DNA of 64,000 bases from Myxococcota bacterium (GCA_041687695.1 JAWLBL010000017.1:64001-128000); one strand, 5' to 3'; shown: positions 26,566-49,011, numbered from the stretch's first letter. Program-made: numbers and translations. The notes: generated by a model not told the origin, from the letters alone.

Positions 26566-27024
26566 ATGCGACGGACTATCTGGCGAGTTCTGGCCCCCGT
26601 GGCCGTGCTGCTGGCCGCGGCCTGCGGGCCGGGCATGGACGAGCGGTCGGGCGGCGACGCCACCCGCGGCGAGGCCGCGCAGGTGGCGCTCGACACGCCC
26701 TTCGACGACCGGGTGAGCGCGCCGCAGGGCGATCACACCGACTGGAAGACCTTCTCCGTCGATGGCCCGACGCGCGCCGAGGTCCACGTGTGGTGGGACG
26801 ACCCCGGCCTCGCGGCCACGGTGACGGTACGAGACCAGTTCTCGGCCGCGCTGGGATCCCTCAAGCACAGGCCGGGCGAGCGCGTCGAACGGCTCGGTCC
26901 GCTCGAGCTCGAGCCCGGCAACTACTTCATCGAGGTTCAGGCGAGCGAGGGAGCGAGCGTCTACACGATGGAGATTCGCACCTCGGCTGGCCGTTCGAAG
27001 GCGCCCTTGCGGCCCGACTTCTGA
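26566..27024 (+). CDS. Lipoprotein with a PPC-like beta-jellyroll domain
   Basis: Lipobox LAAAC after a signal peptide; DHTDWKTF...LEPGNYFIEV...YTMEI; GGAGG RBS. Confidence 0.75.
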   Translation: MRRTIWRVLAPVAVLLAAACGPGMDERSGGDATRGEAAQVALDTPFDDRVSAPQGDHTDWKTFSVDGPTRAEVHVWWDDPGLAATVTVRDQFSAALGSLKHRPGERVERLGPLELEPGNYFIEVQASEGASVYTMEIRTSAGRSKAPLRPDF

Positions 27025-27234
27025 GCGGGGAGGGTGACCGGTGCGGCCGTCGGTGCGAAGTGAGGTCAGTCGGCCCCACCTGGGGTCCGATGTCACCGGG
27101 TCGAAGCTCCCCCGGCACGTCGCTCCTGGCCCCCCGTGCCTCCGGTCCGCGGCTCCGAGGGGCGGGCGAAAAAAACTTGGCCGGGGCGGCGCCGATGGGC
27201 TCGTTTTCCTTTGAAAACAGCGTCTTGGGTCGGA

Positions 27235-27264
27235 TTGACACTGGAAAAAGGGCTGTGCTACGGT
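27235..27264 (+). promoter_or_regulatory. Sigma70-type promoter for the CIS operon
   Basis: TTGACA-N18-TACGGT with TGn extension, 76 nt before the cap gene. Confidence 0.55.
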
Positions 27265-27340
27265 CTGCGCGTCCAGCCGGGCCGGCGAGAGGGCTTCGCC
27301 CCGAAGCGTCGCGTCGGTCCGAGCGCAGGTCGGGTCCCTG

Positions 27341-27934
27341 ATGAGTCAGTTCGAAGTCATCAAAGACATCGGCGATACGGTGAAGGCGCTGCTCGAAGAC
27401 GCATTCAAGAGCGCCGGGTTCACGACCGTGAACATCTCCGTGGACAAGCCGAAGAAGGACAACATCAAGAACCTGCCCACGGTGAACTGCTACATGTACC
27501 ACCTGGCGTTCGACTCGCGGTATCGCGAGCGGACCCAGTCGCTCGTGTCGTCCTATACGAAGGACGGGCGGATCGTGGAGTACTACCGCGACGCCCCGGT
27601 CCACATGCTCGCGCACTACATCCTCAGCGTCTGGGGCAACTCCCCGGCCGAGGAGAACCTGCTGACGGGCCTCGCGGTCAAGACGCTGCTGGAGTATCCC
27701 GTCTTGACGGGTGAGCAGCTCCGCGGCGAGAGCTTCTTTCCGGACGACAAGCTCAACGTCTATCCGAACCTTCAGTCCGACTTCAATGATGTGCTGAGCT
27801 TCTGGCGCAGCATGAACGAGGAGCTACGGCCCGCGGTCTTCTATTTCGTCCGGTTCCGTATCGAGTCCGATCGGAAGTCACCGGAGGTTAGGCGAGTCAC
27901 TGGCAAGGATCTTGCAGTTACCCGCAGCCGGTAG
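27341..27934 (+). CDS. CIS tail terminator/cap (DUF4255, Afp16/Pvc16-like)
   Basis: VNCYMYHL...HYILSVW...EENLL...LLEYPVL...FWRSM...RPAVFY pattern; first gene before the sheath. Confidence 0.8.
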   Translation: MSQFEVIKDIGDTVKALLEDAFKSAGFTTVNISVDKPKKDNIKNLPTVNCYMYHLAFDSRYRERTQSLVSSYTKDGRIVEYYRDAPVHMLAHYILSVWGNSPAEENLLTGLAVKTLLEYPVLTGEQLRGESFFPDDKLNVYPNLQSDFNDVLSFWRSMNEELRPAVFYFVRFRIESDRKSPEVRRVTGKDLAVTRSR

Positions 27935-28094: not shown

Positions 28095-29255
<1,161 letters not shown>

Positions 29256-29339: not shown

Positions 29340-29771
29340 ATGCCGAATCGTCGGCCCCATGACCACATTGGCAACTTCAACTTCAAGGTTGAGATCGAGG
29401 GCGTGACCCAGGGTGCGTTCCGCAACGTCGAGGGCCTCGACTCCGAGACGGAGATCGTCGAGTACCAGGACGGCGACGACATCATCCTCCGCAAGCGCCC
29501 CGGCCGCACCAAGTACAGCAACATCGTGCTGAAGCGCGGCTACATCAACACGACCGAGCTGTGGGACTGGCGCAAGGCCGTCATCGACGGCAAGGTCGAG
29601 CGCAAGTCCGGCTCCGTGATCCTCTGCGCCGACGACGGCACCGAGATCATGCGCTACAACTTCTTCGAGGCGTGGCCCTGCAAGTGGAAGGGCTTCACCC
29701 TCGACGGCAAGGGCACGGACGTGAACGTCGAGGAGATCGAGCTCGCGGTCGAGAAGGTCGAGCGCGGCTAG
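29340..29771 (+). CDS. Tail tube protein 1 (T4 gp19-like)
   Basis: FNFKVEIEG..GAF..VEGL..EYQDG...PGRTKYSNIVLKRG..LWDW...AWPCKW...EEIELAVE. Confidence 0.96.
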   Translation: MPNRRPHDHIGNFNFKVEIEGVTQGAFRNVEGLDSETEIVEYQDGDDIILRKRPGRTKYSNIVLKRGYINTTELWDWRKAVIDGKVERKSGSVILCADDGTEIMRYNFFEAWPCKWKGFTLDGKGTDVNVEEIELAVEKVERG

Positions 29772-29792
29772 TCGACTCTGACGGGTTGATGT

Positions 29793-30018: not shown

Positions 30019-30390
30019 ATGGCGTTCAAGACCGAGTTCGAGTTCACCCTGCCCAAGGGCTACGTCGACAAGGAAGGCAACGTTCATCGCAAGGGCGTGA
30101 TGCGCCTTGCCACTGCGAAGGACGAGATCCTGCCTCTGCAGGACTACCGCGTCCAGAACAACCGAGCCTACCTGGTGATCATCTTGCTGAGCCGCGTCAT
30201 CAGCAAGCTCGGCGACCTCAAGTCGATCAACCCGTCGGTCATCGAGGAGATGTTCTCGACGGACCTCGCGTACCTGCAGGACTTCTACCGGCGCATCAAC
30301 GAAGAGGGCACGAGCGCCGTGAAGGTGAAGTGTCCGGCCTGCGCGCACGGCTTCGACGTCGACCTCGGGGCCGACATGGGGGAATCGTAA
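30019..30390 (+). CDS. Tail assembly chaperone (short, gpG-like product)
   Basis: TEFEFTLPKGYVD..G..H..GVMRLATAKDEI...LLSRVI...DLAYLQDFY.RIN..CPAC; directly after the tube. Confidence 0.85.
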   Translation: MAFKTEFEFTLPKGYVDKEGNVHRKGVMRLATAKDEILPLQDYRVQNNRAYLVIILLSRVISKLGDLKSINPSVIEEMFSTDLAYLQDFYRRINEEGTSAVKVKCPACAHGFDVDLGADMGES

Positions 30391-32493: not shown

Positions 32494-33168
32494 ATGGGTG
32501 CTTCCGAATTCGCGACGGGAAAGCTGAGCGCCACGACTTCGGTGAAGGGCGTGAACCTCGGAGGCTCGGTCGGCGGGATGCTGGCGAACACGGTCGGGCC
32601 CAAGGTGGATGCCCTCCTGGGGCAGATAGGCCTGGGCGGCCTGCTCGGGGGCATGCTCCGCACCGACCCGGACGTGCCCTACCACTACTTCCTCGAGATC
32701 AATGGTCTGCAGTGCGTGCGGTTCAAGGAGGTCAGCGGCCTCAAGATGACGACCGAGCTGCAGCGGATGCGCGAGGGCGGTAACAACATCCACGAAGTGG
32801 TGATGATCGGGCCGCAGAAGTTCGAGCCGTTGACCGTGAAGAAGGGCTTCTACTCCTCGGCCAGCGAGTTCTTCGATTGGATGCGGAGCATCCATGACGC
32901 TGGAGCGGGCCTCAACAGCAAGCGGCGTCAAGACATCTCGCTCGTCGTGCTCAACACCAAGAGCGTCGAGGTCTGCCGCTTCAACTTCACCAACGCCTTC
33001 ATCATCGAGTACGAGGCGCCGTCCTTCAACGCGGACGCGAAGGAGATCGCGTTCGAGTCGATCAAGATCCACTACGACACCTTCGAGTTCAAGCCCGCCG
33101 CCTTCACGGACAAGCTCATCGGCGGCGCCCTGAGCGCGGGGATGTCCGCGCTCGGCAACGCCCTCTAG
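32494..33168 (+). CDS. Tail tube protein 2 (gp19-like, Afp5-like) with N- and C-terminal extensions
   Basis: F.LEING...FKEVSGL...REGGNN...LTVKKG...FFDW...AFESIKI core. Confidence 0.88.
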   Translation: MGASEFATGKLSATTSVKGVNLGGSVGGMLANTVGPKVDALLGQIGLGGLLGGMLRTDPDVPYHYFLEINGLQCVRFKEVSGLKMTTELQRMREGGNNIHEVVMIGPQKFEPLTVKKGFYSSASEFFDWMRSIHDAGAGLNSKRRQDISLVVLNTKSVEVCRFNFTNAFIIEYEAPSFNADAKEIAFESIKIHYDTFEFKPAAFTDKLIGGALSAGMSALGNAL

Positions 33169-36200: not shown

Positions 36201-38171
36201 GTCGGTGGCGTCGCTGGACGTACGACGACCCGAAGCGTGGGCGAGGCCGCTGGCCGTTCCGCGCCAGCGACAACGGCACGTTCGCTCGCTCGTATCCTGA
36301 CTGGCGCCGAAGCGCTTGCCGGTGACGCCGCACGGATGGGTGGCGAGGCGGCGGCTGCGATCGGCCGCGACCTCCCGATGCTCAGCGGCAAGGCTGATGC
36401 CTACTTCGGGGCTTTGGCGCCAGAACGGTCAGCGCGGGCGGGCGTTGCGTCGTCGATGACGGTCCGGGACGCCATCGGCGAGTTGCTGGGGCTGGCGACT
36501 AACGCGCCTGGCATGGCGAGCGATTCGCCGGTTCCGCAGAGCCTGCGAAGGGCCGTGTTGGCGCTCGCGAGTCGGGACGGCGGCGCCGCGAAGGCGACCG
36601 CGACTGGGCCGGCGGCCATCGCGCAGGGCCTTGCGAGCTCGTCCCTGTCCCTCGCGAACGCGGCGTCGCGCCTCGAGATGCGACCGGGAGATCGCGGGAT
36701 CTCGGACGTCGGGCGGCAGGCGATGGGGACGGCCGCCACCGGCGTGTCGGACGCGGGCGCTGGCGCGACCTCCCTCCTGAACCCGGCCTGGTCGCGCCGT
36801 GACGACCTGAACCTGGTCGCGGCCGAGCCGCAGCGTCCAAGCCTCGAGGATCGGGTGGTTCAGGCGCTGAACGCCTCGGTCGGAGGACCGGCGGGCGCCG
36901 GTCGTCTGCTCTCGCCGCTGCGTCAGGCGCGCGTCGTCGGCGACTCCGTATCGGCAGGGAATGCTCAGCCCGGCATTGGCGGCCCGTCGGCTGCTTCGTG
37001 GGGCGGGGCCGTCGCGCGGCTCGCCGACCAGTCGGTGGCGCTCGGGAGTGTGTTGGCGCCCGAGGTGATGCTAGGGGGCATGCGCGCGCCCGAGGTCGCA
37101 GCCGTAGCGGCGGGTCGGCCGTACCTGCGAGAGACCCCGGGAGAGTTGGCCGCGACCTTCGGTGTGGGTGAGCGGAACGCAGTTCCGTTGTCTCCGGTGG
37201 CGGAGGCGGGGCGTCCGGCGCGCGGCAGCCGTCGTGGACAGAACGGGGATGCGGCCTCGCCCACTGTCGGAGCGCAGACGAGCGCGGCCTTGCAGAGGGA
37301 CGGCGGGACGACAGGCGCTGGCAGGACGGCCATCGACGCGAGCTCGCCGGTCGCGAAGCTGCTGCGCCTCATCGATCCCAGCGGCGGTCGGCAGGTGCTC
37401 GGTCGTTCGCTGGCGGCGGGTGAGTTGGGCGCCCTCGTGCGTCAGCTGGGCGTTCTCTCGCCGGATCGGGTCAGCCACGACCGGGCGGTCGGGGACTTCG
37501 CCCTCGCGTGGGCGGGGCGCGTTGACGGCGCGCGGACGGGGCTCGACTTCGGCCTGTCGACGACGCGCTCCGAGCTGCTCGCGTTCTTCCGTAGGGGTGA
37601 GATGTCGCCCGAGGGCCGCGTAGCGGCCGAGTCGCCCATTGGCGATGCGGGCTTCGTAGCGCCGGCGGCCTCGGCGCCTCGACGTGAGGCGCGTGGGGGG
37701 CTGGCCGCTCCGGATCGCAGCCGGCTCCGCCGCGTTGCTTCGCACGTCCAGTCGAGCAGCGCCGGCGCATCGCGACCGCAGCACGGGGCGTCGGCCGCGA
37801 TGCGCGACCTGGACTGGAGCTATGTCAACACGGGGTCGACGACCTCGGTCGGCAACGCCAACCTGGGCGGCCTCGCCGCGTCCGTAGTCGGCGAGAGCGG
37901 GAGCGCCCGTGTTCCGATGCCCCTGGTCGCACCCGCCGTCAAGGCGGTCGCGCAGACGGCGCTCCTGAGTTCGAGAGCGGAGGAGTCTCCCGCAGCGCGG
38001 GTCAGCTCCAGCAGCGCCCCCGCTGGGGGGGCGTCTTCTCAAGAGGCAGCAACTCCCGCCGAAGCGCCTTCGCTGACCAAGGAAGCGCTCGAGGCCCTGG
38101 CCGTCGAAATGGCTGACCGCATCGCGCGGCGGATGAAGCGCGAGAAGGAGAGGACAGGATGGGCTTTCTAG
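33201..38171 (+). CDS. 1656-aa Ala/Gly/Arg/Ser-rich low-complexity CIS protein (candidate tape measure or lumen protein)
   Basis: Uninterrupted ORF with GGAG RBS filling the tube2-LysM gap; C-terminal helix LEALAVEMADRIARRMKREKERTG. Confidence 0.75.
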   Translation: MDQPHTISELLAKGRTPSDGELADLRQLGAFAASMYGRYLHGLNAERTRALGARPGDWARNLSGGLGAATATRWSEGIGLGSQLLADLWSGFWQVGAGGSDGYQGLDVADFEWIGIEEEEAVQIAAAPGDDSMRRRSRPSLFGKPTQPRRSRPSVADTVRAAKDGGRRATAPLTWMDGGSVSPEAIGALIESGLFVADQLAPTTLLGGAEGDASRANRSAAGGLDLRERGALGVPDSAVRSGPGLDRAAGFGNAPILLDGLRVDGRTPALASGLRLANDAFEPQGPRGTGLALTAGRAERLAELSPALAAALAQASAPTARPVYAFFDSVEGEFIALTDEVVDAGPPRDGGASVPTRRSARSSRGSTALSSGSFAAGTAGPSAQARMQPAPSVARLERIVPAAPATSGVRAYNTAATPVVSSSFIRGGHLASNPTGLVSPQLVGTSAAMGASGVARAGAPLAPTLASEQPGRLPMAALTSMVAGGDRPSPQIARQVAYTPAGLARARQQRSAIAAPRVALVDGQSLTVARGSLSGGDILASVQTPTDVEATQAIQKRSMEWAETTALPSSSRAQLTASAPQWRLAADAGPDLPLGAGLSRAEAFAGAVQLRQPSKPQTAFTPVVSREYGVTDATSRWSQDPVLDGVVWIALGEQTQGADPHGLPMATVPSRRAVTLAKADTVARLAHGATLARSAQPTAPGQATTDTDGSVARASGAATLGQAPVASRVFDVQRQVLANSSAGPSGPLSRGLVDGVYLRAPMAAGRGLVENQVDEGRDRLMASPGRGAALTSGLATVGAAAQLFARVAPRAGYLSAELSDLPLVRGEVRSQDEAVTEQAQPGRADATGAERTAGSQLVAALGSGPTAQIASTVNALRHARIAARRPVSTARESLSVLPALGSVFRHEASRATAARTQLPPLARLERGPEAFTRRASTSAGALGLDGADILSVLRVAGPEQRAEVRRALRISGWSEPELRMLELSETGTSAADVGEAALSSVGGVAGRTTTRSVGEAAGRSAPATTARSLARILTGAEALAGDAARMGGEAAAAIGRDLPMLSGKADAYFGALAPERSARAGVASSMTVRDAIGELLGLATNAPGMASDSPVPQSLRRAVLALASRDGGAAKATATGPAAIAQGLASSSLSLANAASRLEMRPGDRGISDVGRQAMGTAATGVSDAGAGATSLLNPAWSRRDDLNLVAAEPQRPSLEDRVVQALNASVGGPAGAGRLLSPLRQARVVGDSVSAGNAQPGIGGPSAASWGGAVARLADQSVALGSVLAPEVMLGGMRAPEVAAVAAGRPYLRETPGELAATFGVGERNAVPLSPVAEAGRPARGSRRGQNGDAASPTVGAQTSAALQRDGGTTGAGRTAIDASSPVAKLLRLIDPSGGRQVLGRSLAAGELGALVRQLGVLSPDRVSHDRAVGDFALAWAGRVDGARTGLDFGLSTTRSELLAFFRRGEMSPEGRVAAESPIGDAGFVAPAASAPRREARGGLAAPDRSRLRRVASHVQSSSAGASRPQHGASAAMRDLDWSYVNTGSTTSVGNANLGGLAASVVGESGSARVPMPLVAPAVKAVAQTALLSSRAEESPAARVSSSSAPAGGASSQEAATPAEAPSLTKEALEALAVEMADRIARRMKREKERTGWAF

Positions 38172-38908
38172 ACACTGTGAAGTCCAAGGCCGGCGAGCTC
38201 AAGAGCACCGTCGACAAGAAGATGGCCGGTGCCCACCTCGAGCACACGGCGTGGGGGCAGCTCGTCAAGGCCAAGCTCGAGATCTTCGATCTCTACGAGA
38301 AGAGCGCGAAGATTGAGGAGTTTCCTTTTAGGTTCAATCCGACGACCTTGAAGGTAACGCGCTCGGCGACCTTCGAGGAGGTTCCGACCACGGCGACGGG
38401 CAAAGATGTTCGCTGGAAGAACACGGCGCCCACCAAGGTCGAGTTCGGAGATCTGTGGTTCGATACCTATGAGGAACGCGCGAACGTCCGCGACAAGTAT
38501 ATTCGTCCTCTTGAAGCACTGCTGGAGTACAACGCGACATCGCATCATGTGCCCAGTGTGCGTTTCGTGTGGGGCGACTACACCTACGACACGACGAAGT
38601 ACTACGTGAACGGTCTGACGGTCGAATACACGATGTTCCTGCCGACGGGTATGCCGGTGCGGGCCAAGGCCACCCTTCAGCTGACCGAGGTCAATCCGAT
38701 CAAGGACCAGCAGAAGAAGGAGTCGAAGGAATCGCCCGACCACGCCAAGATCTACACGGTGCGCCGGGGCGACACCCTGCAGAGCATCGCGTTGGCGGAG
38801 TACGAGGACCCGCGCGAGTGGCGACGCATCGCCTCGAGCAACGGCATCGACGATCCCATGTCGGTCAAGCCCGGTACCAAGCTCCTGGTGCCGCCCATCC
38901 TGAAGTAG
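38159..38908 (+). CDS. CIS tube initiator with LysM domain (Afp7/Pvc7-like)
   Basis: FRFNPTTL, LWFDTYE, VRFVWG, YTMF.P.G.PVRA, YTVRRGDTLQSIA..EY.DP..WR.IA..NGIDDP. Confidence 0.92.
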   Translation: MGFLDTVKSKAGELKSTVDKKMAGAHLEHTAWGQLVKAKLEIFDLYEKSAKIEEFPFRFNPTTLKVTRSATFEEVPTTATGKDVRWKNTAPTKVEFGDLWFDTYEERANVRDKYIRPLEALLEYNATSHHVPSVRFVWGDYTYDTTKYYVNGLTVEYTMFLPTGMPVRAKATLQLTEVNPIKDQQKKESKESPDHAKIYTVRRGDTLQSIALAEYEDPREWRRIASSNGIDDPMSVKPGTKLLVPPILK

Positions 38909-38932: not shown

Positions 38933-40099
38933 ATGTCCAGCTCCAATCGCGAGGTCTTGAGCCTCGTCGTCAAGTTCGACGGGGATACGGCCATCTCCGG
39001 GGACAACGGCTCGGTCGAGACGAAGGATGGCGATCACATCCTTCGGTTCCAGGTCGACCAACGCCTCGACAGCCCTGACTTCTTCTCGCTGGACCTCCAG
39101 ATGCTCAGCGAGGTCGATTTCATGGTGCTCGACAAGGTCAAGCCGGGGATGGCCATCGAGATCTTGGCTGGGTACGACACGGAAGCGACCCTCTTCAAGG
39201 GCGAAGTCAGCTACGTCGAGCCCTTCTTCCCGGCCGACGCCGCAGAGTTCGTCCGGGTGAGCGGCTACGACAAGTCGCATCGGCTGACGCGCGGCACCAG
39301 TAGCCGGACCTGGGGTGACGGCGTTGAGGCCAACGACGAGGTGGGCGCCATCGCTGGCCAGGTCGTCAGCGGATCGAAGGCGCGCAAAGGGAACACGAGC
39401 GATTCGTTGAGCGCCGAGACGGACACGATCTCGACGAAGCTCGAGTACTTGCCGCAGGTCGAGGTGAACGACTATCAGTTCATCCGAGGGCTGGGGCTCG
39501 GGGCGGCCCTCACGATCGACTCGAAGTCGGCGGATGATGCGGCGAAGCTCGGCTTCAAGAAGGTCACGATCACCGGGTCGCCCAAGGTCACCATCTGTCG
39601 CGAACATCCAGAGCCGACCGACGCCCGACAGGTCTTGGACGCTTCGTTCTGTCTGTCGACGGTGAAGCAAGTAGCGCGTGTCGAGGTGCGCGGCTGGAAC
39701 CCGAAGGAGAAGCAGCCGATCCTTGGAGTCGCCGAGGCCGTGAGCGAGGCGTTCGCTGGGACGACCGGCCCTGCGGCTGCAGGCAAGGCCCACTACGGCA
39801 GCAGCAGCAGCGGCCGGGTGCTCACGATTGTCGATCAGCCGGTCGCGTCGACTGAAGAGGCCGAGCTCATCGCCGCGTCGGTGCTCGATCAGCTCGCCAT
39901 GGATTTCGTCACGGCGGACGTGGAGATCGAGGGGGTGCCCGAGCTCATGGCGGGTGACGTCGTCGAGCTCAAGCAGTTCGGAAAGGTCTACAGCGGGACG
40001 TATCTGGCCGAGTCCGTGCAGCACGTCTACTCAGCGGCCGGTGAGATGCCGTACGTCTGCAGGATCAAGCTGGCACGCAACGCGGCGCCCGAAGGCTGA
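38933..40099 (+). CDS. Baseplate hub (phage late control D / gp27-like), no spike domain fused
   Basis: LFKGEV, GYDKSHRLTRG, Q..VNDYQFI, VEVRGWNP, G.PEL.AG.VVEL...SGTY...VQH. Confidence 0.88.
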   Translation: MSSSNREVLSLVVKFDGDTAISGDNGSVETKDGDHILRFQVDQRLDSPDFFSLDLQMLSEVDFMVLDKVKPGMAIEILAGYDTEATLFKGEVSYVEPFFPADAAEFVRVSGYDKSHRLTRGTSSRTWGDGVEANDEVGAIAGQVVSGSKARKGNTSDSLSAETDTISTKLEYLPQVEVNDYQFIRGLGLGAALTIDSKSADDAAKLGFKKVTITGSPKVTICREHPEPTDARQVLDASFCLSTVKQVARVEVRGWNPKEKQPILGVAEAVSEAFAGTTGPAAAGKAHYGSSSSGRVLTIVDQPVASTEEAELIAASVLDQLAMDFVTADVEIEGVPELMAGDVVELKQFGKVYSGTYLAESVQHVYSAAGEMPYVCRIKLARNAAPEG

Positions 40100-40240: not shown

Positions 40241-40268
40241 TTGACAAGGCGCGGTGCTTTCTTATGAT
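40241..40268 (+). promoter_or_regulatory. Internal sigma70-type promoter for the baseplate operon
   Basis: TTGACA-N16-TATGAT. Confidence 0.7.
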
Positions 40269-40294: not shown

Positions 40295-40495
40295 GTGGCG
40301 AGCATGGTCTCGGATTCGTATTTGGATGACCTCAGCCTGATCCAGGACGTCCTCGATGAGGTCGCGAACGGTCGAACCGAAGGGCATCCTTGCCCCTTCT
40401 GTGGAGGGGGGCCCCTCGATGTGAAGGCGGACGAGGCCCGCGTCGCGATCAAGTGCCCGGGTTGTCGCAAGACGGTCGAGGGGCGCTTCGCGTAA
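40295..40495 (+). CDS. Small zinc-ribbon protein
   Basis: CPFC...CPGC; AGAGGAG RBS (start GTG 40295 or the ATG three codons later); host-like codon use. Confidence 0.7.
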   Translation: MASMVSDSYLDDLSLIQDVLDEVANGRTEGHPCPFCGGGPLDVKADEARVAIKCPGCRKTVEGRFA

Positions 40496-40520: not shown

Positions 40521-40919
40521 ATGAAGAACTTCTTGGGGCGCGGGTTTGGATTCCCCGTGGAGGTGGACGCGCACGGCGCCTTCGCCATGGCGGAGTTCGA
40601 AGAGAGCGTCCACCAGTCGGTCCGGATCATCATTGGGACGGCGCCGGGCGAGCGGCTGATGCGTCCAGAGTTCGGGTGCGCCATTCACAACCTGGTCTTC
40701 CATCCGAACGACCCGAACACCTGTGCTCAGGCCGCGATGGCTGTGAACGACGCGCTGGTGAAGTGGGAGCCGCGTATCCGGGACCTGTCCGTGCGGGCCT
40801 ATCCCTCGAGCACCGACGAAAACGCCATCTACATCACGATCGAGTATCGGGTGCGTAGGACGAACAACCTTCACAACCTCGTCTACCCGTTCTTCCTGCG
40901 GAGGGAGCAAGATCTATGA
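40521..40919 (+). CDS. Baseplate gp25/GPW-like sheath initiator
   Basis: FLGRGFGFP, QSVRIIIGTAPGERLMRPEFGC, WEPRI, NLVYPF. Confidence 0.95.
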   Translation: MKNFLGRGFGFPVEVDAHGAFAMAEFEESVHQSVRIIIGTAPGERLMRPEFGCAIHNLVFHPNDPNTCAQAAMAVNDALVKWEPRIRDLSVRAYPSSTDENAIYITIEYRVRRTNNLHNLVYPFFLRREQDL

Positions 40920-43900
40920 TCCCCAGTCCTAACCTCGACGACCGCCGCTGGCAGGACATCGTCGAGGAGGCCGTTCGGCTGATCCCGCAGTACTGCCCCG
41001 AGTGGACGAACTTCAACCCGTCGGATCCCGGCATCACGCTGCTCGAGCTGTTCGCGTGGATGACCGAGATGGCCGTCTACCGGCTCAACCGGGTGCCGGA
41101 GCGGAACTACCTGGCCTTCCTCAACATGATGGGGATCCGGCTCCAGCCTCCACAGCCGGCGCGGTCGCTCGTCCACTTCCAGATCAGCGACAAGATCGAC
41201 CAGGTCCGGATCCCGGCGAACACGCGGGTCGCGACGAAGCCGGCTGGCGACCAGCCCGCCATCGTGTTCGAGACGGAGCGGGACCTGCTGGCCCTCAAGA
41301 ACCAGCTCGTCCGCTGCATGAGCCAGTACGCCCAGCAGTTCTCGGACAACTCGCCGTTCACCGACGGCCAGCGCGGGCCGTTCGAGGTCTTCGGTGGGGC
41401 GAGGAGCATCGAGCGCTACCTGTACCTGGGCGACGACCGCCTGGCCGCGTTCAACGAGGACGCCATCCTGGTCGTTCGGTTCGAGTCGCAGGGCGCCGGC
41501 GAGCGTGAGTTCCACGAGCTGCTGGAGTGGGAGTACTGGGACGGCAGCCGTTGGCGCGAGCTCGTCCGTCCTTCGATGGAGCTCGAGCGCAACTCGGTCG
41601 CGTTCCAGGGCCCGCCCACCTTCGAGAAGACGTCGGTGAACGACGTCGAGAGCTGGTGGATCCGGGGACGCCTGTTCGAGGTCCCGAAGGGCGACGACGA
41701 GACGGTCATCGACACGATCTCGGCGCGCATCGAGGTGCTCGGCGAGGGCGTGCAGCCCGAGCACGCGCTCTGCAACGCCGAAGGCGACATCTACGCGACG
41801 CTCGATCTCGACAAGAACTTCCTGCCCTTCGGCAAGGCGCCGCAGATCGACTCGACGCTCTACCTGAGCGCCGACGAGATCTTGTCGCAGCCCGATACGA
41901 CGGTCCGGGTCGACGTGACCCTCTCGGATCAGTCGGTCGCCGATCGCGCCCGCCCGTCGCACGATCTGCTGCTGCGTTGGGAGTACTTCAGCGGCAAGCG
42001 CTGGAAGGTCCTGGCCAAGGTCAAGGCCGCCGATGGCGCCATCGAGAGCGACTTCGGATTCGTCGACGGCACCAAGTGCTTCAGCGACTCCGGCTCGATC
42101 TCGTTCTCGCGCCCCAAGGACCTGACCGCGACCGAGGTCAACGGGACGGCCGGGCTGTGGATCCGCTGCCGCATCGAGCTCGGCAACTATGGTATCCCGG
42201 GCACCTACGAGCTGGTGGACGACACCTGGATCTGGAAGGACGAGCACCCGCTCAAGCCTCCCACGCTGAAGGGCATCGCCTTCAAGTTCCAGGAGGAGCC
42301 GCACCCGTTCAGCAGCTGCCTCGTGTACAACGACTTCGTCTTCACCGATCACAGCAAGATGGCGGCGACGGAGTACAAGCCGTGGCAGGCCTTCCAGCCG
42401 GTGGCGGAGGAGTCGCCGACCTTGTTCATGGGGTGGTCGGCGCCGTTCCCGAACGAGCCGTGCTCGGTGTTCTTCAACATCGTGGACTCGGAAGGCAAGG
42501 GTGGACGCAACGCGCTGCGCGCCTTCGACGACCGCGCGGATCGTTACGTCGAGCAGCGCGTCGTCTGGGAGTTCTGGGACGGTAAGGGGTGGGCGCCGCT
42601 CGCGCCGAAGGACACCACCGAGAACTTCACCCAGCCGGGCTTCATCGAGTTCGTGGGACCGCCCGAGTTCCGCAAGTCGCGCCGCTTCGGCGAGAGCCTG
42701 TACTGGATGCGGGCGCGCCTCGAGATGGGCGGCTACGACGAAGCGCCTCGCTGCGATCGCATCCTCATCAACGCGACGTACGCGTTGAACGTGACCACCT
42801 ACGGCGACACGCCGCTCGGCTCGAGCCGCGGGACGCCCAACCAGTTCTTCCACTTCCCTCGCGGTCCCGTGCTCGATGGCGAGGCGCTGCTCGTGCGCGA
42901 GCCCGAGCGCCCCCGGGACGAGGATCTCGAGGCCGTCGTCTCCGTCTATGGCGAGGCGGGGATCGCCGAAGACGGCGACGGGCAGGGGTATTGGGTGCGC
43001 TGGCGCCCCGTGGAGAGCATGTTCGACTGCGGCCCCAAGGATCGCGTCTACGTCAAGGACATCTCCACCGGCGAGATCCGGTTCGGAGACGGGGTCCGCG
43101 GCATGATCCCCCCCAAGGGCGACAAGAACATCCGCGCGGGTCGGTTCCAGACGGGCGGTGGTGCGACCGGCAACGTGCCGGCCGAGGCCATCGCCGTGAT
43201 GAAGCAGAACCTGGCCTTCGTCAGCGCAGTGACCAACCCGTATCCGGCCGCTGGCGGCTGCGACATGGAGACGGTCGAGGAGGCCAAGCTCCGCGCGCCA
43301 CACATGCTCAAGGCCCGCAACCGGGCCGTGACGGTCGACGACTTCGAGTGGCTGGCCATGGAGGCCTCCAACTCGGTGGCGCGCGTCAAGTGCCTGCCCT
43401 CGGTCTCGCGCGAGGGTGAGGTGACGGTCATCGTCGTGCCGAAGACCAGCTTCCACGCCTCGCTCGAGGAGAAGCCCGTCCCGACGGCGGAGCTTCTGAA
43501 GAAGGTCCGTGGCTACCTGGCCGAGCGCAAGCTGGTCTCCACCATCGTCAACGTGGTGCGGCCGTCCTACGCCGAGCTGTCGATCGAGGTCGAGATCGTC
43601 CGCATGACGAGCGCGCCGAGCGACCGCATCAAGCGCCAGATCGAGCAGGCGCTGCGCCGATTCCTGCACCCGCTCGTCGGCGGTCGGCAGGGCAAGGGAT
43701 GGCCTTTCGGTCGCGCGGTCCTGAAGGTCGACCTCTACCATGTGGTCGAGCAGGTCGACGGCGTCGACTTCGTCGACAAGATTCGCCTGCGCGACGCCGA
43801 GCGCGGGGTCGAGGTCGAGCAGCTCAAGCTGCTCGACGACCAACTCGTGCACCTCGTGAACGTCACCGTGGTCGAGAAGGCGCATGACCGCATCGTCTGA
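40916..43900 (+). CDS. Baseplate J / gp6-like wedge protein (enlarged)
   Basis: PNLDDR, PEWTNFNPSDPGITLLELFAW, RFGDGVRG.IP, GGG..GNV, RAVT..DFE, FLHPLVGG..G.GWPFGR. Confidence 0.94.
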   Translation: MIPSPNLDDRRWQDIVEEAVRLIPQYCPEWTNFNPSDPGITLLELFAWMTEMAVYRLNRVPERNYLAFLNMMGIRLQPPQPARSLVHFQISDKIDQVRIPANTRVATKPAGDQPAIVFETERDLLALKNQLVRCMSQYAQQFSDNSPFTDGQRGPFEVFGGARSIERYLYLGDDRLAAFNEDAILVVRFESQGAGEREFHELLEWEYWDGSRWRELVRPSMELERNSVAFQGPPTFEKTSVNDVESWWIRGRLFEVPKGDDETVIDTISARIEVLGEGVQPEHALCNAEGDIYATLDLDKNFLPFGKAPQIDSTLYLSADEILSQPDTTVRVDVTLSDQSVADRARPSHDLLLRWEYFSGKRWKVLAKVKAADGAIESDFGFVDGTKCFSDSGSISFSRPKDLTATEVNGTAGLWIRCRIELGNYGIPGTYELVDDTWIWKDEHPLKPPTLKGIAFKFQEEPHPFSSCLVYNDFVFTDHSKMAATEYKPWQAFQPVAEESPTLFMGWSAPFPNEPCSVFFNIVDSEGKGGRNALRAFDDRADRYVEQRVVWEFWDGKGWAPLAPKDTTENFTQPGFIEFVGPPEFRKSRRFGESLYWMRARLEMGGYDEAPRCDRILINATYALNVTTYGDTPLGSSRGTPNQFFHFPRGPVLDGEALLVREPERPRDEDLEAVVSVYGEAGIAEDGDGQGYWVRWRPVESMFDCGPKDRVYVKDISTGEIRFGDGVRGMIPPKGDKNIRAGRFQTGGGATGNVPAEAIAVMKQNLAFVSAVTNPYPAAGGCDMETVEEAKLRAPHMLKARNRAVTVDDFEWLAMEASNSVARVKCLPSVSREGEVTVIVVPKTSFHASLEEKPVPTAELLKKVRGYLAERKLVSTIVNVVRPSYAELSIEVEIVRMTSAPSDRIKRQIEQALRRFLHPLVGGRQGKGWPFGRAVLKVDLYHVVEQVDGVDFVDKIRLRDAERGVEVEQLKLLDDQLVHLVNVTVVEKAHDRIV

Positions 43901-44795
43901 CAACCTCGGCAGCCGCCCAGCGCCGGTCCGGAAGGTCGTCCTTCCGGAGGTGGCCGGGCTGCAGCTCGACGACGCGCGCGTCGTCCTGACGAGCGCGGGG
44001 CTCGACCATGTGCGCGTGCACTACGTCGAGGCGTACGCGGACGAGTTCAGCGTCGTCGAGCAGATCCCGCATCCGGGCATGCTGGTCGACCGCACCCGCG
44101 AGATCACGCTCCACGTCGCGCGCACCAACATGCTGGCGTACCTGCCGCAGGTCTACCAGCAGTCGTCGCCCGGGTTCCTCAAAGGCTACCTGTACATCGT
44201 CCAGACGATCTTCGATCGCCTGTACCAGCGGCTCGACCACATCCACGAGCTGTTCGACCCGCGGACGACGGACCCCGAGTTCCTGCCGTGGCTCGCGAGC
44301 TGGCTGGCTGTCGGGCTCAACCGCGACTGGACCGACCTGCAGACCCGCAAGATGCTGCTCGCGGCGACGCGGCTGTTCCCGTACCGCGGGACGTCGCGCG
44401 CCATCAGCGAGTTCGTCCGCATCTACACGGGGGCGAGCGTCACCATCGAGGAGAACAGCTGGCCGTTCCGGGGGTTCCGGGTCGGCGTGCATTCGACCGT
44501 CGGTGAAGACACGGTCATCTTGCCGGACATGAACCTCGCGCACTGCTTCGTGGTGCGGCTCGATCGGCCGGCCGCGGTCGTCAGCGAGGACGAGATCATC
44601 CGGATCCACGAGATCATCCAGGCGCAGAAGCCGGCTCACACCAGCTACTTCCTCGCGTTCAGCGACGAGGCGGAGTCGGGTGAGATGGGGATGTTCATGG
44701 AGATCGGGACGTCGTCGATCGGGATGGGGATGGGCATCGGCATGGGCGTCGGCGCGGCCGACGTCGTCGCGATGTCAACGTCGGACGGCGAATAG
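43884..44795 (+). CDS. Baseplate gp7 / P2 gpI-like protein with an N-terminal PASTA-like domain
   Basis: VVLPEVAGLQLDDARVVL..AGL...VVEQIP.PG..V...ITLHVA, then LP.VY...FDP..T..EFLPWLASW...RGT...KPAHT. Confidence 0.85.
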   Translation: MTASSDNLGSRPAPVRKVVLPEVAGLQLDDARVVLTSAGLDHVRVHYVEAYADEFSVVEQIPHPGMLVDRTREITLHVARTNMLAYLPQVYQQSSPGFLKGYLYIVQTIFDRLYQRLDHIHELFDPRTTDPEFLPWLASWLAVGLNRDWTDLQTRKMLLAATRLFPYRGTSRAISEFVRIYTGASVTIEENSWPFRGFRVGVHSTVGEDTVILPDMNLAHCFVVRLDRPAAVVSEDEIIRIHEIIQAQKPAHTSYFLAFSDEAESGEMGMFMEIGTSSIGMGMGIGMGVGAADVVAMSTSDGE

Positions 44796-44831
44796 GCGAC
44801 GTAGGGACTAAGAATGGCTCCAGGAGCTGAT

Positions 44832-46367
44832 ATGGCCAACGACACGAAGGGTTATAGCCGGGTCAACTTCTTCACCGGCTTTCAGACGACGGCGGACGAC
44901 TGGAACGACGTCATCCGCTACGACGTCGAGAAGCACAAGCTGCACAACCGGCTCTTCCATGGGCCGGGCGTCGTGCCCTCGGTCGGGGGAGGCCTGAAGG
45001 TCTCGGCGCGCGGTCGCGCGGACCTGTCGGTCGAGGTGTCGCCGGGTTACGCCATCGATGCCTCGGGCAACGATCTCCACCTGGGCGAGCCCGAGATCAA
45101 GACCATCAACCCGGGCGACTTCAAGCTCCCGCAGACGGTCTACGTCGTCCTGAAGTACATCGAGGAGCTGACCGACTTCGTCAGCTACCGGGCCAACCTC
45201 GAGTACAAGGGGCACCGGCGGGTCTCCGAGCGCGTGAAGGTGGAGACGATCATCACCGAGCCGGACATCCGGCACGAGGTGGAGATCGCGCGTATCCACC
45301 TGACCAAGGACGTCCGCCGCATCACGGACGCCAAGGACCCGCTCAATCCGCGCGAGAACGAGATCGATCTGCGGTTCGTGCCCATCGCCGGCGTCGTCGG
45401 CTCGAACCTGTCGCCGGCCGTCCTGCGCGAGCTCGCGGATGTCATCGAGGCGTCCCGGTCGGTCTACGCGCACATGTTCCACAACATGAAGATCCTGCCG
45501 GCGGCGGACGTGGAGCACGCGCTCATCACGCTCGACATGTTCCGGCGGCTCAACCTCATCGACGCGCGCAGCCTGTTCGAGCTGTGGTCGGTCGTCTTCA
45601 ACCTGCAGACGCAGCTGGTCGAGGACGTCGAGCTCAACTACCCGCAGTTCTCGTCGAAGAAGGAGTTCGCCTCCTTCAAGAAGCACGTCGAGCTGCTCGA
45701 GGGCATGTACGCGGAGGGCAAGTTCACCCCCGAGTTCATGACCAACATCCTGGGCTACCAGCGCAAGGGAACCGAGAACCTGACCAGCGTCTTCTCGGCC
45801 AAGGTCAAGGCCAAGCGTCAGGCGGACGCGCCGGCCGCGGCCGCGGCGACGGACGCGGTCTGGGACAAGATCAAGCTCAAGAGCGACGACTTCACCGAGC
45901 TGCTCGAGATCGAGGGGGTCAAGCTCAAGCGGGTCGACGTCATCGATCTGCTCGACAAGACCTCGGAGTCCGGCCACAAGTTCCGCATCGTCGATGCGCG
46001 TGACAAGTACCGGACGCGCCAGAAGCTCAAGTATCCCGACGGGGTCATCGTCGAGGACGTCGGCATCGCCTTCGAGGGCGGCTACGCCGAGTTCGAGGTG
46101 TCGAACGTCACGCCGAACAAGGACCTCATCATGATCACCCGGTTCGACTACGTGCACGGCGACTGGGAGCAGGAGGTCCTCATCAACGGCAAGAAGGTGG
46201 GGACCGAGGTCTGCACCGGCGAGGATCGCAAGTTCCGCTGGCGCAACAGCCCCTTCAAGATCAGCGCCGAGTACGTGACGGACACGTTCCTCAGCGTCCG
46301 CAAGCTGCCGACCACGGCCGAGCGCGACATCAACATGTTCAAGATCTGGTTCTACCAGCCGGCCTGA
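44832..46367 (+). CDS. CIS fibre-like protein: baseplate-attachment N-domain plus jellyroll (carbohydrate-binding-like) C-domain
   Basis: RVNFFTG..T.DDW....Y...K...HNR..HGPGVV...GLKV...VSPGYAID..G; beta-rich C-terminus (EVLINGKKVG...W.N..F.I...WFYQ); AGGAG RBS. Confidence 0.7.
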   Translation: MANDTKGYSRVNFFTGFQTTADDWNDVIRYDVEKHKLHNRLFHGPGVVPSVGGGLKVSARGRADLSVEVSPGYAIDASGNDLHLGEPEIKTINPGDFKLPQTVYVVLKYIEELTDFVSYRANLEYKGHRRVSERVKVETIITEPDIRHEVEIARIHLTKDVRRITDAKDPLNPRENEIDLRFVPIAGVVGSNLSPAVLRELADVIEASRSVYAHMFHNMKILPAADVEHALITLDMFRRLNLIDARSLFELWSVVFNLQTQLVEDVELNYPQFSSKKEFASFKKHVELLEGMYAEGKFTPEFMTNILGYQRKGTENLTSVFSAKVKAKRQADAPAAAAATDAVWDKIKLKSDDFTELLEIEGVKLKRVDVIDLLDKTSESGHKFRIVDARDKYRTRQKLKYPDGVIVEDVGIAFEGGYAEFEVSNVTPNKDLIMITRFDYVHGDWEQEVLINGKKVGTEVCTGEDRKFRWRNSPFKISAEYVTDTFLSVRKLPTTAERDINMFKIWFYQPA

Positions 46368-46560
46368 TCCAGTCGCTCGACGCCCTCACGACCGGCCGCT
46401 CCGAGGATCCTCGGGGCGGCCGGTTCGTTTCGAACGCCAGCCGGTGCCGTGTCCCGGCGGCCGCGAATGTCCCGGCAGTGGTCTTGATCTCTCGTCCCAA
46501 TGCTGCCATCGTCTGGGACAAGGTTTGTTTCGGGGCGACCGGAGACGGTCGTGGGGTGCC

Positions 46561-47187
46561 ATGGTTTGGGACTTCTTGAAGAGCCTCGGCCGGCAGAAGA
46601 TCACCGGCGTCGAGGCCATGGCGAACAGCAAGGCCATGGGCGCCCAGGCGAAAGCCAAGGCGAAGGTCGCCGCCAAGTTCAACAAGGCGGTGGACGGGGC
46701 GACGAACAAGGCCAAGGGCGTCGTCAAGAAGGACAAGAAGCCGGACCAGGCCGCGGACAAGGATGACAAGGGCATGGGATTCTTCTCGAAGAAGAAGGGC
46801 TCCGACGGTCCGGCCCCCCAGGCCGCTCCAGAGCCCGCGGAGTTCGGGGACAAGACGCAGTTCATCCAGGTCGTGGTCGACAAGCCGAAGGAGTGCGTCG
46901 GCTGGGTGGTCGTCCTCAGCGGCCCCCAGAAGGGGCAGGACTTCCGCATCGTCCCTGGCAAGAACGTCCTCGGCACCGCCGCCGATTGCGACATCGTCCT
47001 CACCGACCAGTACCTGTCGGCTCGGCACGCGGTCATCCGCTACGAGGAAGGGACCTTCATGCTCGTCGACCTCGACTCGACGAACGGCACCTTCGTCAAC
47101 GACAGCCGCTGTGCCAAGGAGGAGCTGATCGACAACGATCGCGTTCGCCTGGGCCGTACCGAGCTGAAGTTCAAGTCGCTCTACTGA
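46561..47187 (+). CDS. FHA-domain protein with a Lys/Ala-rich N-terminus
   Basis: GWVVVLSGPQKGQDF...LGT..CDIVL...LSARHA...DLDSTNGTFVN. Confidence 0.9.
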   Translation: MVWDFLKSLGRQKITGVEAMANSKAMGAQAKAKAKVAAKFNKAVDGATNKAKGVVKKDKKPDQAADKDDKGMGFFSKKKGSDGPAPQAAPEPAEFGDKTQFIQVVVDKPKECVGWVVVLSGPQKGQDFRIVPGKNVLGTAADCDIVLTDQYLSARHAVIRYEEGTFMLVDLDSTNGTFVNDSRCAKEELIDNDRVRLGRTELKFKSLY

Positions 47188-47505
47188 CCGGCGACGCGCG
47201 CGGACGCCGAGCTTGGAGGGCGCTCGACCGTTCTCCGACCGTCGCCATCCTGGCCTTTGGTCGGCTCGTGATTCGTGTCGGCGGGGCCGCTGGGTGCGGC
47301 GCGAGGACGAGGCTAGACCGCGGGCCGTTGGGGTGCGCCGCTCGAGGCGGGGATACGCCACCTGAGCAAACGGCCCGCGGGGCGTTGACCGCGCGGTCTA
47401 TCTCCGCGATTGTATGGGCCGTCCATGGCCCGAACGGGCTGCTCGCGGGCGGGGAACGTGGGCCGTGGCCCCAATCGGAACGTGACGAGGCTGAGGAGGC
47501 GCATC

Positions 47506-49011
47506 GTGCGGCTGGAGACGTTGACAAAGAGCCGGTGGGTCGCGGGGGGGCTCATCGCAGCCTTCTTGACGCTGGGGCCGACGACGTCGGTGTTGGCGGC
47601 TAGCGATCGCCTGGACATCGAGTACGTGAAGACGGACGAGTTCCTCGCCAAGGGGACCATCCAGTTCTACGTGGACCTGCTCGACGACGACTACAAGGTC
47701 ATCTCCGGACTCTCCGGGGACGAGATCACGGTCTTCATCGACGGCCAGGAGGTCCCCGGGACCGTCCAGGTCCAGAGCTTCTCGGAAGCGCAGGAGCGGG
47801 TGGCGGTCGCCATCCTGATGAACGGCTCGCGTGGCTACGCCAAGCTCGAGGCCGCCGAGGACGACGAGGGCAACGCCGTTCAGGGGCCGCCGGAGGTCTT
47901 CGGGCTCCAGAAGCAGGGCTTCGCCGAGTTCGTGAAGAAGCTCGACACGAACGACCACTTCTCGGTGTACCTCTACAACGAGGCGGGGCTGAGGGTCGTC
48001 GACAACTGGAGCCAGGATCCGACCGGCGCGGCCGACCGCATCGAGAAGAACGCCAAGCTGAGCGACGAGTCGAAGTCCTCGCCGCTGCCGCCGCTTCTGT
48101 ACAAGAGCGTCAAGGACATCGTCGACGGCAAGATCGCCGAGGCCGAGAACCTCCCGCGCCGCAAGATCCTCCTGGTGATGTCGGACGGCAAGGACCGCTT
48201 CGAGTCCCAGGCCAAGAAGCTCGAAGGGACCATCGACCAGATCGTCGAGGCCGCCAAGGCGAACGGCGTCCGCATCTACACGCTCGGGTTCACGATGGAC
48301 CTGCCCGACCCGCTCGTGCAGTTCTCGAGCCTGGCGTCGAAGACGTCCGGCATCCATCGCGAGCTCGACGCCGGGCGGGTGACCGAGATCCCGATGGTGC
48401 TCGAGAACATCGCGACGGAGCTGAAGAAGCAGTACGTCGTCACGTTCAAGCCGCACGAGGACTTCAAGGGCGCCGAAGAGGCGGTGAAGGTCCGCCTCAA
48501 GCTCAAGAGCCCGCGAGGCAGCACGCTCGAGAAGGAGTACACGGAGCCGGTCAAGATCCAGAAGAAGCCCTTCGATTGGATGGGCCTGCTCAAGTGGATC
48601 GGCATCGGCCTCGGCAGCCTGCTCGGCCTGTTCCTCGTCTGGAAGCTGGTGGCCGGGATCCTCCGCGCGCGACGCAACGCGGCCAGCCAGCCGGTCGTCG
48701 AGGAGCAGTACAGCGGCCCATACAAGGGCAAGCTGCTGGCCACCGGAGGGGGGCTGATCGGCACTGAGTATTTCCTGACTGAGGATGTCACGACCATCGG
48801 CTCCATCCAGGGCAACGCGATCGTCCTGTCAGGGCCGGGGGTGTCCAAGCGCCACGCCGGTATCAAGATCGAGGACATGCGGTTCGAACTGGCCGACTTC
48901 GGCTCGACCAACGGGACCTACGTGAACGGCACCAAGATCACCAAGCAGTTCCTGCGCGACGGTGACCTGGTGTCCATCGGCGACAACGAGCTGCGCTTCA
49001 CGCTGAAGTAG
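47506..49011 (+). CDS. Signal peptide - VWA-like domain - TM helix - cytoplasmic FHA domain protein
   Basis: VAILMNGS, ILLVMSDGKD, VRIYTLGF, LASKTSG (VWA); TM WIGIGLGSLLGLFLVW; VSKRHA...STNGTYVNG (FHA); GTG with GAGGAGG RBS (track start 47410). Confidence 0.85.
   Translation: MRLETLTKSRWVAGGLIAAFLTLGPTTSVLAASDRLDIEYVKTDEFLAKGTIQFYVDLLDDDYKVISGLSGDEITVFIDGQEVPGTVQVQSFSEAQERVAVAILMNGSRGYAKLEAAEDDEGNAVQGPPEVFGLQKQGFAEFVKKLDTNDHFSVYLYNEAGLRVVDNWSQDPTGAADRIEKNAKLSDESKSSPLPPLLYKSVKDIVDGKIAEAENLPRRKILLVMSDGKDRFESQAKKLEGTIDQIVEAAKANGVRIYTLGFTMDLPDPLVQFSSLASKTSGIHRELDAGRVTEIPMVLENIATELKKQYVVTFKPHEDFKGAEEAVKVRLKLKSPRGSTLEKEYTEPVKIQKKPFDWMGLLKWIGIGLGSLLGLFLVWKLVAGILRARRNAASQPVVEEQYSGPYKGKLLATGGGLIGTEYFLTEDVTTIGSIQGNAIVLSGPGVSKRHAGIKIEDMRFELADFGSTNGTYVNGTKITKQFLRDGDLVSIGDNELRFTLK

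Follow-up and report, generated by a model that had tools for sequence, protein, structure and literature searches.

To our knowledge, few ways of attaching a contractile injection system (CIS) to a membrane are known: TssJ/L/M, the Bacteroidota complex, thylakoid anchoring and CisA. In the subtype scheme for extracellular CIS (eCIS; PMC6899500), the Streptomyces CIS has been assigned to subtype IId, and the gene for CisA lies there downstream of the baseplate genes (PMC12237407). Also in print are the likeness of certain eCIS fibres and Tail_P2_I wedge proteins to TssK and TssG (PMC12923769), and eCIS clusters from uncultured Myxococcota whose tube genes are very highly expressed, the tube being the most expressed gene in two metagenome-assembled genomes (MAGs), for which a role in predation was proposed (PMC11937823). 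We analyze here a stretch of 64,000 nucleotides from a Myxococcota bacterium (GCA_041687695.1 JAWLBL010000017.1:64001-128000; hereafter the window), in which positions 26566-49011 hold a CIS locus whose listed genes are co-oriented on the + strand. Its last two genes encode FHA-domain proteins: one soluble, the other combining a signal peptide, a VWA domain, one transmembrane helix and a cytoplasmic FHA domain (VWA-TM-FHA). Comparison of sequences among relatives indicates that this FHA pair is very probably coupled to the CIS.

The FHA/VWA module, conserved and linked to a single CIS clade, offers candidate parts for another kind of membrane attachment and, if docking is real, would represent a new envelope anchor. 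In the literature that we searched, mostly open access, we found no description of FHA, VWA or PASTA partners or of the vertical, dispersed organization reported below, no CIS in Haliangium or Bradymonas, and no report of DUF6760 or of a frameshift in a CIS.

Affinity of the system and coupling of its FHA proteins

Annotation was based on matches to Pfam, NCBIfam and PHROGs, with predicted structures for selected proteins (Table 1). Every gene named in a preliminary description of this DNA is present and co-oriented, and domain matches verify the PASTA-fused wedge protein, the soluble FHA protein and the VWA-TM-FHA protein that it reported; the hub is also there, with only its gp27-like half, the spike part being encoded elsewhere. 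Markers of the eCIS superfamily (Chen et al. 2019) found in the locus are the Afp1/5 tube, Afp2-4 sheath, Afp7, Afp9, Afp11 and Afp16. The Afp8 spike, Afp10 PAAR and Afp15 ATPase are absent from the locus, and all three are found on other contigs of the genome. Baseplate J scores 382 bits against TIGR02243 (cut-off 156), and the fibre matches the CIS13 family weakly (Pfam/NCBIfam).

Among solved structures, the closest sheath is that of the Streptomyces CIS (E 1e-134, versus 1e-59 for the Pvc2 sheath) and the closest baseplate J is Streptomyces Cis11 (E 9e-92), the next match standing at 5e-17 and lineage I baseplates at 5e-17 or worse; no Afp/PVC baseplate is found among the six baseplate matches listed. 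Because both closest structures come from the Streptomyces CIS, the label of Afp/PVC-type system given initially is too loose: Afp/PVC represents subtype Ia, and the lineage I sheath and baseplate, fused VgrG and Afp12-14 of that subtype are not seen here. The system probably belongs to lineage II and is IId-like, as placed by its best matches among solved structures, and its clade may be sister to IId. It also departs from the Streptomyces type, which has a CisA homologue and no fibre, in that a fibre is present and the membrane protein is VWA-TM-FHA.

The genome contains a single sheath locus. Among the 60 relatives examined, sheath 1 is 80-94% identical in 44 and the PASTA-wedge protein has matches in 46, one of them (G051) of a distant type; 36 loci were fetched from these 46 wedge-positive genomes, the 10 left out lying mostly on short contigs. 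The order baseplate J, PASTA-wedge, fibre is constant in all 36 loci, and in 10 of them the operon is split from the tube module at the junction of the hub and zinc-ribbon genes. A sigma-70-like site in the window falls at this split point, the count of such sites being no higher than chance. In a tree of 55 baseplate J proteins, where a divergent copy from G168 was labelled apart from its own family, each of the nine host families with at least two rows forms one group, and the 21 changes required are the minimum. Rows from other classes nest among those of the focal class with modest support, and the CIS may have undergone an ancient transfer. As judged from these comparisons, the CIS is probably a single-copy, vertically inherited core chassis of many Myxococcota, most of them uncultured. 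Source labels of the clade are Myxococcota, including Bradymonadia, Bradymonadales, Polyangia and Haliangium; Haliangium ochraceum encodes a fibre orthologue, protein P0321, which shares 48% identity with the fibre along its length, and offers a cultured test case. A scan of a contig collection with one protein returned 3 loci only. Among plasmids, the closest full-length baseplate J (32%) is on a Treponema succinifaciens plasmid (L188, NC_015386.1, 915-18060), where it belongs to a CIS-like cluster that is rearranged and includes M23, SH3 and PAAR genes.

The soluble FHA gene follows the fibre in 28 of the 36 class loci and the VWA-TM-FHA gene in 26, while an FHA gene is found after the fibre in 11 of 15 PASTA-type loci of other classes. 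We then extended the comparison to a phylum sample of 200 genomes, counting as PASTA-type wedges those with E below 1e-50 (45 genomes, plus G053, which is cut by a contig end) and as FHA orthologues those with E up to 1e-22, thresholds of our own choosing, with 15 candidates scored per genome. An FHA orthologue is present in 44 of the 46 genomes with a PASTA-type wedge; the remaining 154 genomes, among them 29 with wedges of other types, have none. These counts are not independent, because the genomes are kin.

Linkage to the operon is not constant: in family f12 (six loci), the FHA pair sits beside an outer-membrane protein (OMP)-like gene, away from the operon. In CIS-less genome G041 the genes flanking the slot of the pair abut, and in CIS-less G030 another gene occupies it. 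With profile searches, both CIS-positive loci included in the test yielded the pair, and G041, G030 and three f15 loci gave no match. As a control, the OMP-like neighbour is kept in all eight CIS-less f15 genomes, as well as in G030 and G041, which yielded no FHA, VWA-TM-FHA, lipoprotein or DUF4157 matches. Independent co-losses of the pair with the CIS thus number one or two, in small genomes. In genome G005 the entire block is missing, OMP-like gene included, but spike and DUF4157 genes are retained, which looks like an assembly gap.

One may object that the FHA, VWA and lipoprotein genes are merely old neighbours of an ordinary eCIS in a conserved chromosome segment. FHA genes are indeed many in Myxococcota (23 tblastn matches in this genome), unrelated OMP-like and PhaR-like genes are also syntenic (13-16 loci), and genome G031 retains a VWA-TM-FHA gene, at a contig end, with no sheath, wedge, spike or soluble FHA. 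However, the OMP-like gene persists in the CIS-less genomes while the FHA pair does not, and the pair was lost from an intact block away from the operon. This explanation is largely refuted and we consider it very improbable. Synteny, phylogenetic profile and co-loss when unlinked together bear out the proposal that the FHA and VWA-TM-FHA genes belong to the CIS, a conclusion in which we are highly confident.

The upstream lipoprotein, proposed as a further partner, is confirmed as a lipoprotein by an invariant Cys20 in 10 of 10 aligned rows, and is usually linked to the system: it lies just upstream of the cap-sheath 1 pair in 30 of 44 genomes (hand count). It is nonetheless dispensable, since nine of the 14 misses come from family f10, where all 9 genomes lack an orthologue. 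At C13:224411-226031, a paralogue of it directly precedes a PP2C-type phosphatase gene.

The chaperone slippery site and the dispersed genes

A G GGG GAA heptamer occurs two codons before the stop of the chaperone gene, and the -1 frame runs on as DUF6760. In relatives, 28 distinct junctions carry GGGGGAA (25 cases), a run of seven G (2 cases) or neither (1 case), and in 15 of the 28 the -1 frame has no start codon from 20 codons upstream to 4 downstream. Among named plasmid records, 46 of which have a match, all eight examined (L189-L196, from Streptomyces, Streptantibioticus, Rhodococcus, Nostoc, Paenibacillus and Paraburkholderia) show a run of at least five G in the corresponding position. 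In actinophages, about a thousand chaperones have GGGGGAA as their five-two motif (PMC10274946). The arrangement resembles gpG/gpGT of phage lambda in its chaperone (phrog_508), its GGGGGAA just before the stop and its conserved -1 frame, and differs in that the site belongs to a chromosomal CIS instead of a phage. We consider a programmed -1 frameshift of the G/GT type very likely in this CIS chaperone, with DUF6760 probably as the T part of the pair; an overlapping GTG start could be an alternative in those records that have one. If so, subtype IId systems, the model Streptomyces type among them, should make a long assembly chaperone that has escaped annotation.

A phage-type chaperone with a phage-type slippery site may also suggest that the locus is a defective prophage tail. 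We searched the genome, which is 99.3% complete, with single families that gave positives in control genomes. No portal, capsid or terminase was matched (portal and capsid were each represented by a single family, terminase by two), in agreement with the initial statement that phage head genes are absent, now extended to capsid genes elsewhere in the genome. Besides, the sheath is single-copy and 80-94% identical across a class, and the cap and DUF4157 are eCIS-specific, so that the chance of a defective prophage is close to negligible. The same searches found no TssC, TssM or TssL, which are among the genes expected in type VI secretion system (T6SS) subtypes i-iii; of the reported absence of TssJ/L/M and ClpV, the part on TssL and TssM is thus upheld, TssJ and ClpV being outside the families searched. 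Family searches of the locus proteins likewise returned no holin or endolysin, as had been noted.

The missing parts of the particle are scattered over the genome. Contig C3 carries the gp5-type spike as a lone gene, and the PAAR gene is beside a DUF2169 gene on contig C24; two lone extra tube genes are also observed, at C8:58052-58753 (with an N-terminal extension containing a short repeat) and C27:93723-94136. In a relative (L097), the same spike directly follows the hub, twice, which ties the spike to this system. The spike family PF04717 is found in 50 of 60 relatives, operon genes occur near the spike in 1 of 29 spike loci (about 1.5 kb examined on each side), and in the complete chromosome G006 the spike is at 7.11 Mb and the operon at 0.73-0.76 Mb.

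Cargo candidates are similarly dispersed. DUF4157 has been linked to eCIS toxins (PMC8213781), and cargo loading by Pvc15 has been described (bioRxiv 2023.08.15.553202). The genome holds 18 DUF4157 genes, of which four encode extra Pfam domains (OmpA, UCH, PG_binding_1, Tse3_N) and the other 14 none; positive genomes have 1 to 43 DUF4157 matches each. PF22977, which we take to be a marker of Afp15-type ATPases, has 10 matches; seven fall in frames that contain AAA motifs, and three of those seven are directly upstream of DUF4157 genes. Such Afp15-like ATPase genes, directly before a large DUF4157 gene on C5, C11 and C18 (L167, L171, L182), are reminiscent of loader-cargo cassettes; fragments are seen on C36 and C38. 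By elimination, we infer that the dispersed ATPase and DUF4157 genes serve this chassis.

Possible docking, release or self-directed firing

The predicted fold of VWA-TM-FHA (predicted local distance difference test, pLDDT, 91.6) comprises a beta domain with an inserted VWA domain (Z 21.9), one long transmembrane helix and an FHA domain (Z 20.1); the positions of the metal ion-dependent adhesion site (MIDAS) of the VWA domain are not conserved. It is the sole transmembrane protein of the locus, no hydrophobic segment being present in the PASTA-gp7 protein, the fibre or the soluble FHA protein. The latter begins with an amphipathic helix (moment 0.72) followed by a basic segment, and carries Thr99 in 38 of 38 rows within a T-x-x-(I/V/L/M) motif, the shape of an FHA ligand site. 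FHA domains that bind phosphothreonine have G-R, S-x-x-H and N-G motifs, whose Ser, His and Asn are kept here. When residues 90-208 of the soluble FHA protein were modelled in complex with PASTA, the fibre head and residues 130-620 of baseplate J, the score was 0.01, which counts neither way. In other classes, the linker of the soluble FHA protein contains a zinc-ribbon insertion (L091, L094-L096, L101, L106), and three FHA genes follow the fibre in L105.

The fibre model (pLDDT 82.4; predicted template-modelling score 0.47) is matched best by TssK structures in Foldseek (E 1e-6, with TM-scores of only 0.24-0.39), and its residues 11-315 align with IglD (Z 10.1, 230 aligned, root-mean-square deviation (rmsd) 12.8). 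Mean column identity is 61%, head included, and 28 residues of the head are invariant. Such conservation is unusual, setting this fibre apart from variable receptor-binding fibres (PMC12923769), and suggests that the ligand too is single and conserved, being a self protein or else a glycan universal in cell walls. The PASTA domain, initially proposed as an envelope anchor, is not supported in that role and cannot by itself hold the particle to the envelope: the wedge protein carrying it lacks an export signal, and would reach peptidoglycan only once the particle is released or fired.

We tentatively favor a domesticated lineage II CIS that remains cell-associated, on several grounds: among solved structures, the cytoplasmic Streptomyces CIS provides the nearest sheath and baseplate; the FHA pair is kept and lost with the CIS, and VWA-TM-FHA follows the baseplate genes as CisA does; the fibre is TssK-like and conserved, unlike variable receptor-binding fibres; the locus has no holin or endolysin family; and 18 DUF4157 genes accompany a single sheath locus in the genome. 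Five steps may be envisaged, in falling order of certainty. The particle would be assembled in the cytoplasm with short and long chaperones produced by the -1 frameshift. DUF4157 proteins, encoded in separate loader-cargo cassettes, would then be loaded by Afp15-like ATPases. Next, the inner-membrane VWA-TM-FHA and the soluble FHA protein, which seeks the membrane, would recruit the baseplate to the membrane, in the role of CisA in Streptomyces (PMC12237407) or of TssL/TagH in the T6SS (PMC13584744), probably with contact through the TssK-like fibre or the enlarged baseplate. Docking would be gated by phosphorylation of Thr99, or by a periplasmic cue read by VWA and the lipoprotein. Finally, the particle would cross the envelope on firing and enter a cell in contact. 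The evidence for functional coupling is good, whereas docking as a physical event and outward firing we only infer, and the cell attachment and the predation or kin killing initially suggested are likewise conjectural. A docking or trigger role for the FHA pair seems to us somewhat more probable than its opposite, while the full chain up to outward firing seems somewhat less likely than not.

Several observations weigh against this scheme. Docking is proposed from genes, and in Roseiflexus, particles of the related IId kind were observed without an anchor (PMC12998442). Neither an outer-membrane channel nor a gene for wall remodelling could be tied to the locus. The rmsd of the fibre to TssK/IglD is high, its head is CBM35/CBM6-like (Z 11-12, rmsd 2.4-3.1), which suits an external glycan, and TssK likeness is shared with eBAP3 fibres thought to bind target cells (PMC12923769). 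None of the 38 soluble FHA domains has the phosphate-binding Arg, and only 7 of the 38 membrane ones do, which weakens the idea of a phospho-switch; docking may therefore not need phosphate. Finally, G156 and G174 have the wedge and no detected FHA orthologue, adding to the G031 exception, the kinship of the genomes counted and the loss of the lipoprotein in f10.

The CBM-like head also fits a released, glycan-binding particle, and a classic released eCIS is a close rival and a distinct possibility. Here lysis would free the particles, the CBM-like head (and PASTA) would bind target glycans, and the FHA pair would be a signalling module timing assembly, loading or release, at no point an anchor; indeed FHA proteins regulate the T6SS without being an anchor (PMC13584744). 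The eBAP3-type fibre with Tail_P2_I has been described as target-binding (PMC12923769), a cap gene is present, ClpV-type recycling is not expected, cargo candidates include UCH-like, OmpA and PG_binding_1 domains, and the highly expressed tubes of uncultured Myxococcota were interpreted in this sense (PMC11937823). On the other hand, the locus has no lysis family, the fibre head is nearly invariant across classes and a dedicated membrane protein is co-retained. Killing by bradymonabacterial strains, which may or may not carry this CIS, is contact-dependent, with inactive cell-free supernatant (PMC11509652).

We may also hypothesize a cytoplasmic CIS of the Streptomyces kind, docking on VWA-TM-FHA under stress to kill or remodel its own cell in a social or developmental programme. 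The subtype is the same by sheath and baseplate, CisA (PMC12237407, PMC10066040) and self-directed firing (PMC10066040, PMC12998442) provide precedents, inheritance is strictly vertical and core-gene-like, and no outer-membrane channel was identified. However, a fibre with a glycan-type head has been kept, whereas the Streptomyces CIS has no fibre (PMC12237407, PMC10066040), and the large, variable DUF4157 cargo set fits diverse targets better than self-lysis. We regard self-directed firing as unlikely.

Taken to its furthest, the cell-associated reading would define a third kind of envelope anchor in diderms, a view that we hold to be doubtful: a TssK-like fibre on an eCIS-lineage baseplate would dock on a VWA-TM-FHA/soluble FHA complex replacing TssJ/L/M, forming a T6SS-like contact weapon that is core machinery in several Myxococcota classes, is armed from dispersed ATPase-DUF4157 cassettes and links eCIS and T6SS docking. 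Whatever its mode of action, an eCIS-lineage system appears to be kept like a housekeeping operon in predatory bacteria without T6SS, in which killing on contact and the discrimination of kin still lack an explanation (PMC11509652).

Features of the locus and comparison with known systems

Table 1. Genes and sites of the CIS locus, by position in the window
Feature	Position	Strand	Remarks
Lipoprotein, PPC-like beta-sandwich	26566..27024	+	absent from family f10; paralogue on contig C13
Cap / tail terminator, Afp16-like	27341..27934	+	Pvc16_N, PF14065 E 5e-19
Sheath 1 (main sheath)	28095..29255	+	80-94% identical across class
Tube 1	29340..29771	+	gp19, TIGR02241
Tail assembly chaperone, short form, gpG-like, 123 aa	30019..30390	+	phrog_508 E 2e-5
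Slippery heptamer G GGG GAA, two codons before chaperone stop	30378..30384	+	motif named for phage chaperones in PMC10274946
DUF6760, -1 frame; putative C-terminal extension of long gpGT-like chaperone, ~178 aa	30378..30554	+	
Sheath 2, 606 aa	30551..32371	+	family match
Tube 2 / tube initiator	32494..33168	+	family match
1656-aa Ala/Gly/Ser/Arg-rich protein, conserved C-terminal helix	33201..38171	+	
CIS_tube + LysM, Afp7-like	38159..38908	+	family match
Hub, gp27-like half of VgrG only	38933..40099	+	gp5 spike separate, on contig C3
Sigma-70-like site, 11/12 matches	40241..40268	+	one found versus 0.9 expected in shuffles
Zinc-ribbon protein, 63 aa, directly before gp25	40304..40495	+	kept in 29/36 class loci
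gp25 wedge protein	40521..40919	+	family match
Baseplate J, gp6/Afp11, 994 aa	40916..43900	+	TIGR02243 above cut-off; Streptomyces Cis11 is 652 aa
PASTA fused to Tail_P2_I, gp7/TssG-like wedge protein	43884..44795	+	no export signal
Fibre: TssK/IglD-like shoulder and helical neck, CBM35/CBM6-like head	44814..46367	+	conserved to C-terminus
Soluble FHA protein	46561..47187	+	amphipathic N-terminal helix, Lys/Ala-rich segment, invariant Thr99, FHA without canonical Arg
Signal peptide, VWA (degenerate MIDAS), one transmembrane helix, cytoplasmic FHA	47410..49011	+	true start probably downstream of 47410

Three elements of the locus had been overlooked: the 1656-aa protein, the 63-aa zinc-ribbon gene and the DUF6760 frame, which has no start of its own in this genome. 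The 1656-aa protein matches no family in Pfam, NCBIfam or PHROGs and may be tape-measure-like by its position; it is poorly conserved save at its ends, and sits in the tape-measure slot of a subtype said to have no typical tape measure. Several f44 loci have a duplicated zinc-ribbon gene. Three RNA libraries (4 of 24 runs examined) contain contigs that nearly match sheath 1 and tube 1 in full, showing neither transcription nor its level; contigs from two studies end near 27945.

Upstream of the lipoprotein and divergent from it are an extracytoplasmic function (ECF) sigma factor-like frame (about 25836-26475, -), a zinc-binding anti-sigma-like gene (25116-25853, -) and a CHAT-like protein (23311-25119, -), labels that come from translations and a weak HetF match; syntenic in 2-4 close loci only, these were rejected as partners. 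So were a kinase (20038-22161), with kinase-like matches in 7 loci, and the PP2C gene, found in 1. The OMP-like gene downstream (49633-50433, -) was rejected as an outer-membrane channel, being kept in CIS-less genomes. Tandem repeats of its last 40-50 bases lie just beyond the gene end (49496-49700), reflecting either repeat expansion or an assembly artefact.

With Afp/PVC (Ia), the system shares cap, sheaths, tubes, LysM, gp25, baseplate J and Pvc15-type loader ATPases; it differs by the absence of an Afp12/13/14 pattern and of a fused VgrG and by its vertical, dispersed organization. With the T6SS, it shares a TssK/TssG-like baseplate periphery, an FHA accessory protein and, possibly, a logic of lipoprotein, periplasm and Thr phosphorylation (PMC13584744). 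In contrast to the T6SS, no TssC, TssL or TssM was found, and Afp11- and Afp16-type genes, which are not in T6SS (PMC6899500), are present. The TssK-like fibre shoulder and TssG-like Tail_P2_I adaptor have already been reported for eBAP3/Tail_P2_I eCIS (PMC12923769); unlike eBAP3 fibres, here compared by description, the present one is a short, conserved fibre whose helical neck is TssK-like, and the words FHA and PASTA do not occur in the main text of that source. Uncultured marine Myxococcota possess eCIS-like clusters in MAGs (PMC11937823), which probably belong to the same clade; section 14 of that work contains no analysis of FHA, VWA, PASTA, frameshift or inheritance.

The closest likeness is to the Streptomyces cytoplasmic CIS (PDB 9GTP, 8BKY), seen in the sheath, baseplate J, Tail_P2_I wedge and chaperone-DUF6760 pair, and in the gene for a single-pass membrane protein after the baseplate genes. 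Unlike it, the present system has a diderm host, two sheaths, PASTA on the wedge, a fibre and a zinc-ribbon gene, its VgrG is split with the spike elsewhere, and its ATPases and cargo are dispersed. Where Streptomyces has CisA, compared here by description, the membrane partner in this system is VWA-TM-FHA, accompanied by a soluble FHA protein.

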